Origin: Chrysomallon squamiferum
Taxonomy: Eukaryota > Animalia > Mollusca
NCBI GenBank assembly: GCA_012295275.1
Contig: CM022670.1
Span: forward strand, 28,024,001 to 28,088,000
Direction: 5' to 3'
DNA length: 64,000 bases
In this document: piece after piece, positions 1-62,098 of the stretch
Numbering within the stretch: position 1 is the first letter of the stretch
Layout of the letters: each line of letters opens with the position of its first letter
Made by a program: the position numbers and the translations under genes
Notes under the pieces: generated by a model
Told to the model about the DNA's origin: nothing
The model's input: the letters and a program-made list of their open reading frames with translations, nothing else
The model's database searches: none

Positions 1-188
1 AAGTTCTGTTAACGCTACAACATCTCCTACAACAGCCACAACCACAATCCAGTCTTCCACGACTGAGATTCCAAAACCTTATGAAGTGGGCAAACAATAT
101 GAAGTGATTGTTGAAGCAGCAGCGAGGGAACTGAACACGAATAAAACGAAGACTGCAATCAGTTCAGCCTGGCTGTCAGCCAATAAAA
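1..188 (+). CDS. Gene A exon (partial): end of Ser/Thr stalk + first half of repeat 1
   Basis: Frame from nt 2: SSVNATTSPTTATTTIQSSTTEIPKPYEVGKQYEVIVEAAARELNTNKTKTAISSAWLSANK; donor gtaaaa at 189, phase 1. Confidence 0.85.
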
Positions 189-60600: not shown

Positions 60601-62098
60601 AAACGTCTGAAATCGTTTTCTGTTGTTTATTTAACCAGTTTCATTTCTGAAAAGACCTATTTTTTTTATATATATGTCATTTGATTAACCAATATGAACA
60701 TTTCTAAAGAGAAAGCAAACAAAAAAAAGAAGAAAGAAAACAGAAATAATTTTTTTTTATAAATTTGTATGATTCCTTTTTATTTTATTATTATTAATAT
60801 TAATATTATTATTTTATTTTGCGTGTGTGTGTATGTGTGTGTTGTTATTATTTTTTTATTTTTTTGTTTTTTGGTCTCTACAATCTCTGAATCTTAAACT
60901 TTCCCCAGTGATGATAATTCAGCCTCCTGATTTCCTGACACTGACGGTGATCGCCATGTTTTACTGCATGTCTGCTCGTCAGTCGTCGCTTTGGCAATGC
61001 TTCCCTCGCTTCTTTTCTTTCAGACATCGCAGATCTCGCACACTAAAGCAGAAACCCGAAGAAGTAAACGGTTACAACGCGGAACACTTCTCCACGCAGC
61101 CGGAGTTTGACAACCCTGCCTACAGCGTGGACGACCTCGACCTCGACAACAGCCGGACTAACACGTACTACGTCACCATGGACAACGAATGAGATAGTCA
61201 CTACCACTGCATGTCTGTCACATTTGTAACTCTTTAATGTAGTGCCATTCATGCATGTTTGTCATATTTATAACACAATGTAGAATTATTCATGCATGTC
61301 TCTCACATTTATAACACAATATAGAATTATTTATGCATGTCTCTCACATTTATAACACAATAACGTTGACGCATATGTGCATGTTTCTCAGTCCACAACG
61401 TAGATTTACAAAATATGATGTTCAGACTTGTTACCTCTACGGAAGTGTAAATCGCTTTCATCTTCTGCTCATAATTTATTTTATTCACAGCAAAACTTCT
61501 TATTTTTCTTCTTTTCGGTATTTTTCTTTTGTTAATTTATGTGTTATTTTTCCCAGTGGTTTCATTCAGTTAACTTAGTTCACACGTGTTAATTACTGAC
61601 CGATTTAAACAGCACTGGATACGAAATACAGTTCAACTCATTAGTTATTGCTGTTCGTTTGTTTTGTTTTTATTATTATTATTATTATTATTATTATTAT
61701 TATTATTATATATATATATTTTAATATTTAACCAGTATTTCATGTTTGAATAATATATATATTTTTTAAATTGAATAACAGCTTAAAACAATAATTACAC
61801 AAACTTCATAGATCCCGTTTTTTATGTTATTCAGATTATTTCATTCTGTGTAATTTTATATTTTTTGAACTATGTCAATTTGAATATAATTTGTATTTTT
61901 TATTATTTTTTTATTTTTAGGAAGCGGAAACAGAGAAATCTGGAAGACGACCCTCTCAAGTTTAATGAAAGAAATTTTGACAAGAACCATTTTACCACCA
62001 CACCCGTGTTTTTTGACAACGACGTGTATTCCCATGACGACCACGAGGAAGGGTTTTACGTCGTCAATGCAGAAGAAAATGGGAAAGCAATCAGTTAA
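39645..62098 (+). CDS. Gene B: atypical Delta/Serrate-like type I membrane protein (SP-C2/MNNL-4xDSL-11xEGF-mucin-6 SEA-like repeats-TM-tail), two alternative last exons
   Basis: 22 hand-spliced exons sum to 5430 nt (1809 aa + stop) using last exon 61024-61192, with no frameshift; MNNL, DSL and EGF cysteine patterns read directly. Confidence 0.9.
40834..40991 (+). CDS. Gene B exon 2, N-terminal C2/MNNL domain of Notch ligands
   Basis: [24 protein letters not shown]...[14 protein letters not shown] matches the FxNxxG...GxCCxG...C...xxxCLK motif of DSL ligands. Confidence 0.9.
41525..41854. mobile_element. Non-autonomous hAT-type DNA transposon (MITE)
   Basis: TIR cagtgactcccaacc / ggttgggaaacactg; perfect 8-bp TSD cagtagat at 41517-41524 and 41855-41862. 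Confidence 0.88.
42808..43316. mobile_element. Non-autonomous pogo/Tigger-type DNA transposon (MITE)
   Basis: Degenerate TIRs tagtcgtacctcgagttacgagt / actcgtaagtcaaggcaccactg, subterminal ttacgag repeats, inserted in a TA-rich tract. Confidence 0.7.
44010..44368. repeat. ~70-bp minisatellite, about 5 copies
   Basis: Unit acacaactcaaatacaaacagttcccatatatacatacattacgcatacatatacattcatgcgtat. Confidence 0.9.
45639..45734. repeat. (GA)n microsatellite
   Basis: Perfect GA run. Confidence 0.95.
46790..46925 (+). CDS. Gene B exon 3, C2/MNNL domain
   Basis: [25 protein letters not shown]...[11 protein letters not shown] resembles Delta CxxG...NSF...NPIxxxFxFxW. Confidence 0.88.
47279..47451 (+). 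CDS. Gene B exon 4, C2 domain C-terminal part
   Basis: [23 protein letters not shown]...RQIRPS. Confidence 0.87.
47481..47965. repeat. 37-bp minisatellite, about 13 copies
   Basis: Unit cgacatgtagctcttctgaacatagataacataggtt, degenerating at the 3' end. Confidence 0.95.
48279..48472 (+). CDS. Gene B exon 5, DSL domain 1
   Basis: [44 protein letters not shown]. Confidence 0.92.
48746..48941 (+). CDS. Gene B exon 6, EGF1-2
   Basis: ...[30 protein letters not shown] (calcium-binding type start). Confidence 0.92.
49288..50132 (+). CDS. Gene B exon 7, EGF3-DSL2-EGF4-EGF5-DSL3-EGF6
   Basis: Within ORF 49154-50155; DSL motifs [10 protein letters not shown] and [10 protein letters not shown]. Confidence 0.93.
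50797..52431 (+). CDS. Gene B exon 8, EGF7-8, DSL4, EGF9-11, mucin-like stalk, first half of repeat 1
   Basis: ORF 50868-52484 extended to acceptor at 50796; ~210 aa Ser/Thr-rich stretch; donor gtaagt at 52432. Confidence 0.93.
52843..52903 (+). CDS. Gene B short repeat exon 1
   Basis: 61 nt, [21 protein letters not shown]. Confidence 0.85.
53590..53873 (+). CDS. Gene B long repeat exon
   Basis: [12 protein letters not shown]...[12 protein letters not shown]. Confidence 0.87.
54272..54332 (+). CDS. Gene B short repeat exon 2
   Basis: 61 nt, [21 protein letters not shown]. Confidence 0.85.
54723..54985 (+). CDS. Gene B long repeat exon
   Basis: [14 protein letters not shown]...[12 protein letters not shown]. 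Confidence 0.87.
55338..55419 (+). CDS. Gene B short repeat exon 3
   Basis: 82 nt, [28 protein letters not shown]. Confidence 0.83.
55511..55857. mobile_element. Tc1/mariner-type MITE with ~95-bp TIRs
   Basis: cagggtcattcaaaagtcccgctacacttttaaattttaattaaa... mirrored by ...tttaattaaaatttaaaagtgttgcgggacttttgaatgaccctg|ta. Confidence 0.9.
56090..56301 (+). CDS. Gene B long repeat exon (3' end 56301 or 56307)
   Basis: [14 protein letters not shown]...VCDCEA...ARDLLKAH. Confidence 0.83.
56606..56654 (+). CDS. Gene B short repeat exon 4
   Basis: 49 nt, [17 protein letters not shown]. Confidence 0.83.
56888..57114 (+). CDS. Gene B long repeat exon
   Basis: [10 protein letters not shown]...[12 protein letters not shown]. 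Confidence 0.87.
57402..57468 (+). CDS. Gene B short repeat exon 5
   Basis: 67 nt, [23 protein letters not shown]. Confidence 0.85.
58130..58368 (+). CDS. Gene B long repeat exon
   Basis: [15 protein letters not shown]...LCLCVG...[11 protein letters not shown]. Confidence 0.87.
58892..58955 (+). CDS. Gene B short repeat exon 6
   Basis: 64 nt, [22 protein letters not shown]. Confidence 0.85.
59365..59533 (+). CDS. Gene B exon: second half of last repeat + linker
   Basis: [14 protein letters not shown]...SERNPDDN, phase 0 donor gtgagt. Confidence 0.85.
60016..60110 (+). CDS. Gene B transmembrane exon
   Basis: [32 protein letters not shown]. Confidence 0.92.
61024..61192 (+). CDS. Gene B last exon, form 1 (NPxY tail)
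   Basis: [55 protein letters not shown]; phase 2 acceptor. Confidence 0.85.
61209..61362. repeat. ~41-bp tandem repeat in 3' UTR, 3-4 copies
   Basis: atgcatgtctctcacatttataacacaat(g/a)tagaattatt units. Confidence 0.75.
61921..62098 (+). CDS. Gene B last exon, form 2 (duplicated tail)
   Basis: [58 protein letters not shown]; phase 2 acceptor; similar to form 1. Confidence 0.72.

Follow-up and report, generated by a model that had tools for sequence, protein, structure and literature searches.

A tandem gene pair of Chrysomallon squamiferum from an apparently undescribed family of DSL-type surface proteins with arrays of a predicted SEA-like domain

The Notch ligands Delta and Serrate/Jagged consist of a signal peptide, a C2/MNNL domain, a DSL domain, EGF repeats, and one transmembrane segment. 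Serrate and Jagged have 16 EGF repeats and a VWC/cysteine-rich domain, and Jagged also carries a single membrane-proximal ferredoxin-like domain (PF23575). Here we describe two genes, A and B, that lie in tandem on the plus strand of a 64,000-nucleotide stretch of DNA from the mollusc Chrysomallon squamiferum (contig CM022670.1, positions 28,024,001 to 28,088,000; hereafter the window, with coordinates counted from its first letter). The general plan of the ligands is seen again in gene B of this pair. In contrast to Delta and Jagged, gene B has four DSL domains among its EGF repeats, with extra cysteines, a lost Notch-binding face, and no DOS-type EGF repeats, and the window genes carry a Ser/Thr stalk, 6 or 27 predicted ferredoxin-like domains in a row, and NPxY tails. 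Neither VWC nor PF23575 was found in Pfam scans of the window segments and relatives.

The text of Gazave et al. (2017, PMC5356439) uses the class "DSL-like" for DSL proteins that bear further domains and sets it aside, and the text of PMC8166818 reports an expansion of DSL proteins in lophotrochozoans, mentioning bivalve DSLs in tandem as well as "other domains." The window genes fit the catch-all definition of the former, which covers several DSLs or extra domains in annelids and molluscs. By the Delta criteria given there, gene B has an MNNL domain and a DSL domain, EGF repeats numbering nine or more, a transmembrane segment, and a tail, together with a predicted signal peptide exon, but the pair departs from the criterion of "no additional conserved domain" through its 6 or 27 array copies and the four DSLs of gene B. 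In the parts of these two papers that were covered, neither the array nor the architecture is described, and their figures may show members. The term "DSL-like" gave no match in seven text supplements of PMC5356439.

KIAA1549 and the membrane mucins MUC1 and MUC16 share with the pair a glycosylated stalk, tandem SEA-like domains, and a transmembrane segment. They carry no C2-DSL-EGF head and, in a comparison made through Pfam only, no match to the repeat. The text of PMC13570299 gives KIAA1549 three SEA-like domains, of which the membrane-proximal one bears a furin site, whereas the furin-type site described here lies in the second-last copy and in gene A only. The family is apparently undescribed and old, and combines parts of familiar kinds: a DSL-like variant joined to a new SEA-like domain family. 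A preliminary description, made from the letters of the window alone, would have been refuted by an architecture already described, and none came up in the full-text literature searched, a scope that leaves figures and subscription journals outside.

Gene models and the paralogous arrays

Gene B begins with a probable first coding exon, predicted to encode the signal peptide (39645–39695). The C2/MNNL domain is spread over exons 40834–40991, 46790–46925, and 47279–47451 (Pfam MNNL, E 5e-08), and the exon of the first DSL domain follows at 48279–48472 (Pfam DSL, E 2.7e-12, with an alignment to Serrate, DLL1, and Jagged2). Exons 48746–48941 and 49288–50132 encode EGF repeats, DSL2, and DSL3, and exon 50797–52431 encodes further EGF repeats, DSL4, a stalk that is 50% Ser plus Thr, and the start of repeat domain 1. 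Six short and six long exons with six predicted SEA-like domains occupy 52843–59533 and are followed by the transmembrane exon (60016–60110, phase 0 to 2). There are two options for the last exon, one at 61024–61192 with the motif FDNPAY (61106–61123) and one at 61921–62098 with a related motif ending in FDNDVY, after which poly(A)-type hexamers occur. When spliced on paper, gene B gives one open frame of 1,811 or 1,814 residues, depending on the last exon, without an internal stop. All acceptors are AG, and all donors are GT except for one GC.

Gene A enters the window from upstream with the end of a Ser/Thr stalk exon and the first strand and helix of domain 1 (1–188). Its 27 short and 27 long exons, with 27 predicted SEA-like domains, extend over 717–31719, and the transmembrane exon (32029–32126, phase 0 to 2) and the cytoplasmic tail exon with YHNPTY (32856–33174) complete a model of 3,098 residues. 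Three one-base breaks, read as X, fall in the long exons at 16931–17203 (273 nucleotides), 23540–23807 (268 nucleotides), and 26185–26434 (250 nucleotides); the two frame pieces of the first align in order to the Patella ortholog, and the third break is near an A5 run. The 5' end and head of gene A lie outside the window; within it, tblastn searches with the heads of two orthologs matched the exons of gene B only.

Splice-site scans gave the same exon scheme in both genes, with short exons of 3n+1 nucleotides (phase 1 to 2) alternating with long exons (phase 2 to 1). The repeat unit of ~110 residues straddles these exons, running from the last ~36 residues of a long exon through a short exon into the next long one. 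The last copy ends at the transmembrane exon in both genes, which would place it outside the cell and next to the membrane in a type I layout. With a profile built from 186 domains, 27 copies are recognized in gene A and 6 in gene B, and none of 508 reversed proteins reaches 10 bits. The 1,505 six-frame segments of the window hold no copy beyond the exons of the models. When the repeats of the two genes were compared with hhalign, the probability was 96.9 (E 1.6e-10) with exons as the unit and 98.4 (E 6e-15) once the domains had been re-phased, and a profile of the gene A copies alone recovers five of the six gene B copies at E below 1e-8. These comparisons support the view that the two genes are paralogs, although the copies average only 15% identity, be it within A, within B, or between A and B.

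Most of what the preliminary description had said of the pair is thus found again: the copy numbers of 27 and 6, the long/short exon scheme, the transmembrane starts DWQVPVGVV and EWAVPVGVV, and the tandem paralogy, for which a significant match between the A and B repeats had been set beforehand as the test. The proposed order of a phase-0 intron, a transmembrane exon, a phase-2 intron, and an NPxY tail is correct for the phases in both genes and fails for the second tail of gene B, which has FDNDVY. A Notch-ligand-type head, claimed for both, is seen in the window for gene B; for gene A it is known from orthologs only (MNNL and DSL in Patella, DSL in Potamilus).

That gene B is a single gene, as had been proposed, is borne out by homology. 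A Haliotis rubra model is 49% identical to residues 18–924 of gene B and spans the junction at 52843 (41% over 167 residues, E 4e-36), and a DSL domain and the repeat occur together in 11 molluscan gene models (P0001, P0010, P0157, P0240, P0271, P0275, P0278, P0279, P0281, P0291, and P0295). Three other molluscan models are broken, with Physella split, Bulinus split after copy 1, and Pomacea stopping before the array. Despite these three, the alternative of a head and an array encoded by separate genes was rejected on the joined models. In a second DNA data set, the exons of gene B recur at ~98% identity with no indel inside exons among the matches listed. The same data set leaves the gene A frameshifts undecided, having no cover over 23516–24001 and, near 26185, a piece that begins at 26378. 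Three RNA runs gave no exon cover over 48000–53890, which says nothing about expression.

The weaker boundary picks are the short exons 4842–4920 and 9217–9259, the acceptor at 6372, the GC donor at 56307, and the signal peptide exon. For the exon beginning at 56090, a GT donor six bases before the GC donor (56301–56307) would leave the phase unchanged.

Distribution, copy order, and predicted fold of the repeat

A search with the exon profile gave 179 representatives at E 0.001 or better, of which 150 were listed; all relatives are gene predictions and are taken as annotated. The named relatives among the matches listed are gastropods, bivalves, and the annelid Owenia, and searches with the head extend the range to a chiton and to rotifers, so that the lineage-specific family of the preliminary description, if taken narrowly, is too restrictive. 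Three of the representatives (P0183, P0238, and P0239), long proteins of bacterial type, had no domain match and were dropped. The nearest named proteins come from gastropods, which points to a snail; besides the Haliotis model, a Gigantopelta protein is 54% identical over the last 464 residues of gene A. Database relatives from Patella (KAK6195844.1), Potamilus (KAK3591160.1), Aplysia (XP_012936519.1), Elysia (RUS79891.1), and Owenia (CAH1774350.1) are orthologs or close family members, and they bear automatic names only, namely "Delta-like protein," "uncharacterized," "jagged-1b," and "notch homolog 1-like."

The arrays of relatives can be aligned copy by copy. Proteins of the gene A type from Patella (3,634 residues, with MNNL and DSL) and Potamilus (3,590 residues, with DSL) both have 27 copies. 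The gene A copies match best at the same position in 24 of 27 cases for Patella and in 16 of 27 for Potamilus, and a partial Ruditapes model has 18 copies, all of which line up in the same order with Potamilus copies 10–27. For the gene B type, the six positions occur in order in Lymnaea, Aplysia, Haliotis asinina, and one further protein, with four to five copies above 10 bits. In Owenia, which has 12–14 copies, the mapping holds for the last three only. The array does not behave as a freely varying spacer, since three distant molluscs agree in a type A array of 27 copies, identity is position-specific, and type B arrays correspond copy for copy. The copy number of each type is thus old and largely fixed, against the variable-length array proposed at the outset. 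A recent tandem expansion was likewise rejected, because the copies within gene A are so dissimilar and 23 of the 27 resemble the Patella copy at the same position more than any other copy of gene A.

Several relatives depart from these two layouts. A partial Dreissena model of the A type (P0125) maps to Potamilus copies 5–10 and then 23–27, which may be an internal loss or an annotation gap. An H. asinina model (P0123) apparently contains two B-type arrays end to end, which suggests either that another tandem duplicate exists or that the model is a fusion. A Littorina protein (P0100) has a C2-like start, a DSL, at least 16 EGF repeats, and one weak copy (residues 946–1042, 16 bits) before its transmembrane segment, and is possibly a link between ordinary ligands and the array family. 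Two rotifer proteins of about 4,200 residues (P0282 and P0289) have 55–58 EGF repeats and five to six copies of the repeat domain, and the one from Adineta also has DSLs that bear the extra cysteine. The domain is found beside an LDLa repeat, a weak C-type lectin match, and a VWA domain as well (P0132, P0139, and P0124).

No Pfam model for the repeat was found in 46 window segments or in sets of 6, 27, and 18 relatives, and the SEA model PF01390 is not among the matches listed in these scans. The Pfam matches that repeat exons did give were set aside as noise, a single one reaching the cut-off (POTRA, in one of 33 long exons). Run against the sequences of the PDB, the repeat profile returned three matches at E about 9, as expected by chance. 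Compared with the Jagged ferredoxin-like domain PF23575 (121 domains, 120 from vertebrates and one from a spider), the profile reached a probability of 0.6%, and with the Notch HD domain 0.05%, both being low-diversity templates; in these comparisons 20 shuffled controls reached up to 0.3%, and no homology to either domain was detected. The canonical self-cleavage site of mucin SEA domains is of the G-S-V-V-V type, and this motif occurs in none of the 33 window domains.

AlphaFold2 models were those of two relatives that are 54% and 55% identical to parts of gene A, and not of the window's own proteins. The predicted local distance difference test (pLDDT) score is at least 90 at 242 of 453 residues in one and at 152 of 252 in the other, and they contain β-α-β-β-α domains whose fourth strand is short or absent. 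In a comparison of the smaller model with 48,161 chains, the best match was MAD12 of PCDH15 (Z score 10.0, root mean square deviation 3.1, 102 aligned residues). Further matches were a ferredoxin-like chain of Nup54 (Z 8.8), MAD28 of CDH23 (Z 8.8), CELSR1 (Z 7.2), and the SEA domain of MUC16 (Z 6.2). Since the models of relatives best match the cadherin MADs, with the SEA domain of MUC16 also matched, we predict that the repeat forms a SEA-like/MAD domain of the ferredoxin-like type of about 100–120 residues. The unnamed repeat of the preliminary description is therefore uncatalogued in Pfam, yet recognizable in its modelled fold. The predicted fold is shared with the cadherin MADs named above and with the SEA-like domains of MUC16, the dystroglycan complex, IA-2, and the Notch HD. 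In contrast, sequence identity to these domains is only 7–13%, and a cadherin has one such domain where 6 or 27 stand in a row here.

Head, basic site, and cytoplasmic tails

The head of gene B contains the C2/MNNL domain and four DSLs recognized by Pfam, interleaved with EGF repeats, of which about 11 can be read from the sequence. The Notch-binding face of Jagged1 is formed by Phe-199, Arg-201, Arg-203, Asp-205, and Phe-207, as given in the text of PMC3415683. None of these five is present in DSL1, DSL2, or DSL4 of gene B, and DSL3 has one; DSL2 and DSL4 have a tyrosine at 199. A fixed pattern, which misses some DSLs, caught 55 of them in 16 proteins of the family. Phe-199 is kept in 11 of these, Arg-201 in 4, Arg-203 in 3, Asp-205 in 32, and Phe-207 in 1, and both Jagged controls retain Arg-201, Arg-203, Asp-205, and Phe-207. 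The binding loop of 54 of the 55 contains an extra cysteine, and 46 are followed by a CCC-type EGF repeat, which together suggest a disulfide between DSL and EGF. DOS-type EGF repeats (PF21700 and PF21795) are matched in Jagged controls and unmatched in the exons of gene B. As many as 15 DSL modules occur in a single Owenia protein. In two A-type heads (P0121, residues 150–300, and P0122, residues 215–350), the EGF repeat after the DSL has an insert of ~110 residues that is rich in predicted-strand-like sequence and has no Pfam match.

The only R-x-K/R-R sequence among the 33 window domains is an RKKR site in copy 26 of gene A (29977–29988), encoded by a lengthened short exon (29921–30026). 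It falls in a low-confidence loop of the model between strands 2 and 3. The loop between these strands is where mucin SEA domains cleave themselves and where furin cuts Notch. A basic site is present at the same loop in all eight molluscan A-type proteins, as R-x-K/R-R in six of them; it occurs in none of 12 B-type proteins and is absent in Owenia. Furin processing within SEA-like domains is described for Notch and KIAA1549 in the text of PMC13570299.

The tail motifs are YHNPTY in gene A, FDNPAY in option 1 of gene B, and FDNDVY in option 2, which is without NPxY. LDL receptor-type receptors are thus resembled in [F/Y]xNPxY by the tail of gene A and the first tail of gene B, but not by the second; they differ in their LDLa repeats and YWTD propellers, neither of which is present in the gene B exons or the gene A repeats. 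The two last exons of gene B have a motif in common and seem to stem from an old duplication of one exon. Orthologs of option 1 are seen in models from Elysia, Batillaria, Mercenaria, Mizuhopecten, and Potamilus, and orthologs of option 2 in those from H. asinina, Lymnaea, Physella, Bulinus, Candidula, and Biomphalaria. Of the motifs QNxxN and NNV, as taken from the text of PMC3241720, the Neuralized-type QNxxN is absent from all tails examined, and gene A has one NNV.

Proposed roles, alternatives, and further features of the window

We favor, with a probability of about one half, the reading that both genes encode surface proteins acting as long tethers or uptake receptors, in which a C2-DSL-EGF tip serves a non-Notch partner and NPxY drives internalization. 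The tip would bind a cell-surface or matrix partner other than Notch. Stalk and array would keep it off the membrane, at a distance that repeat number might set, as the preliminary description proposed, and might yield under load as cadherin MADs do, the array being either extensible or rigid. Furin could cut the gene A protein inside copy 26 to leave a non-covalent two-chain protein, from which force or shedding might free the outer 25 domains and the head. PTB-type adaptors would read [F/Y]xNPxY and pull the protein inward, and the choice of last exon in gene B may alter its trafficking. The parts of this scheme that are legible in the letters themselves are the architecture, the paralogy, the copy order, the loss of the Notch face, the extra cysteines, the basic site of copy 26, and the tail motifs.

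Several observations weigh against it. Both gene models are predicted from sequence, and gene A carries its three frameshifts in this assembly. Motifs and fold are what suggest furin cleavage, endocytosis, and mechanical yielding; with the larger model, the matches came in the same order at a lower Z (7.3), Foldseek found weak ferredoxin-fold matches and no SEA match at E 0.001, and the ferredoxin-like fold is widespread. A strict [F/Y]xNPx[Y/F] is present in the last 110 residues of only 6 of 26 relatives, many of which use the second tail or are truncated. Finally, a Mercenaria model has DSLs, a stalk, a transmembrane segment, and tail 1 with no repeat, so some members may do without the array.

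If the head still engaged Notch through other contacts, the proteins would be non-canonical ligands or modulators in which NPxY replaces the ubiquitin pull of Delta. The C2 and DSL domains stand at the tip in canonical order, Asp-205 or an aromatic residue at 199 survives in many DSLs, and a Delta chimera with the NPxY of the LDL receptor partly restores signaling, as the text of PMC3241720 reports, a motif to which FDNPAY of gene B tail 1 corresponds. Since such a motif can partly stand in for the Delta tail, this alternative keeps some weight, but we consider it unlikely: Arg-201, Arg-203, and Phe-207 are almost always lost, the binding loop has gained a cysteine, gene B lacks DOS repeats, and up to 15 DSLs in one Owenia protein better suit a structural or multivalent role. 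The stalk, the 57 and 35 N-glycosylation sequons, the SEA-like domains, and the furin-type site, as in MUC1 and KIAA1549 (text of PMC13570299), would also suit a membrane mucin-like coat or proteins of mucus or shell matrix, with an ectodomain that is cut and shed and a head that mainly cross-links. The copies have stayed in order since the divergence of gastropods and bivalves, which is not known of mucin repeats. Together with the missing self-cleavage motif and with conserved tail motifs that point to regulated traffic, this makes a mucin-like role rather improbable.

The three one-base frameshifts among 27 long exons raise the further question of whether gene A is a decaying pseudogene here, with gene B alone functional. 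We regard this as very doubtful. The other 3,095 residues contain no in-frame stop, splice signals, furin site, and tail are intact, one break is at the A5 run, and the Patella and Potamilus orthologs are unbroken, so that indel errors of long reads are the simpler explanation.

The tether or uptake reading has a bolder form, which is speculative and probably not correct as a whole. The family would be an old spiralian force-bearing one, in which a Notch-ligand tip was reused for a non-Notch partner, the MAD/SEA-like chain acts as an extracellular spring that unfolds stepwise, and the furin-cut copy 26 provides a Notch-like break point. In simulations described in the text of PMC7547225, MAD12 unfolds before unbinding and could give about 40 nm, and SEA-like domains plus a neighbor act as proteolytic switches according to that of PMC6586460. 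The mechanical role is drawn by analogy from these papers on the fold, and likeness of fold need not mean likeness of function. If it were true, a ligand head would sit on the mechanical switch of a receptor, and 27 copies at ~40 nm each, as proposed for MAD12, could store about a micrometer.

Apart from its role, this is apparently an undescribed protein family, present in molluscs, an annelid, and rotifers, with a domain family that is likewise uncatalogued. In databases its members are now labeled Delta-like, Jagged, or Notch-like, and such mislabeling inflates the number of Notch ligands counted as "expanded" for these animals. The family also offers a natural test of C2-DSL modules without a Notch face and of long SEA-like/MAD arrays under force.

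The window as a whole is AT-rich, microsatellite-rich animal DNA. It contains intronic minisatellites of 37 bp × 10.9 and 71 bp × 4.9 as well as a degenerate CTAACC telomere-like run (within 47481–47882, 44025–44368, and 1143–1217).

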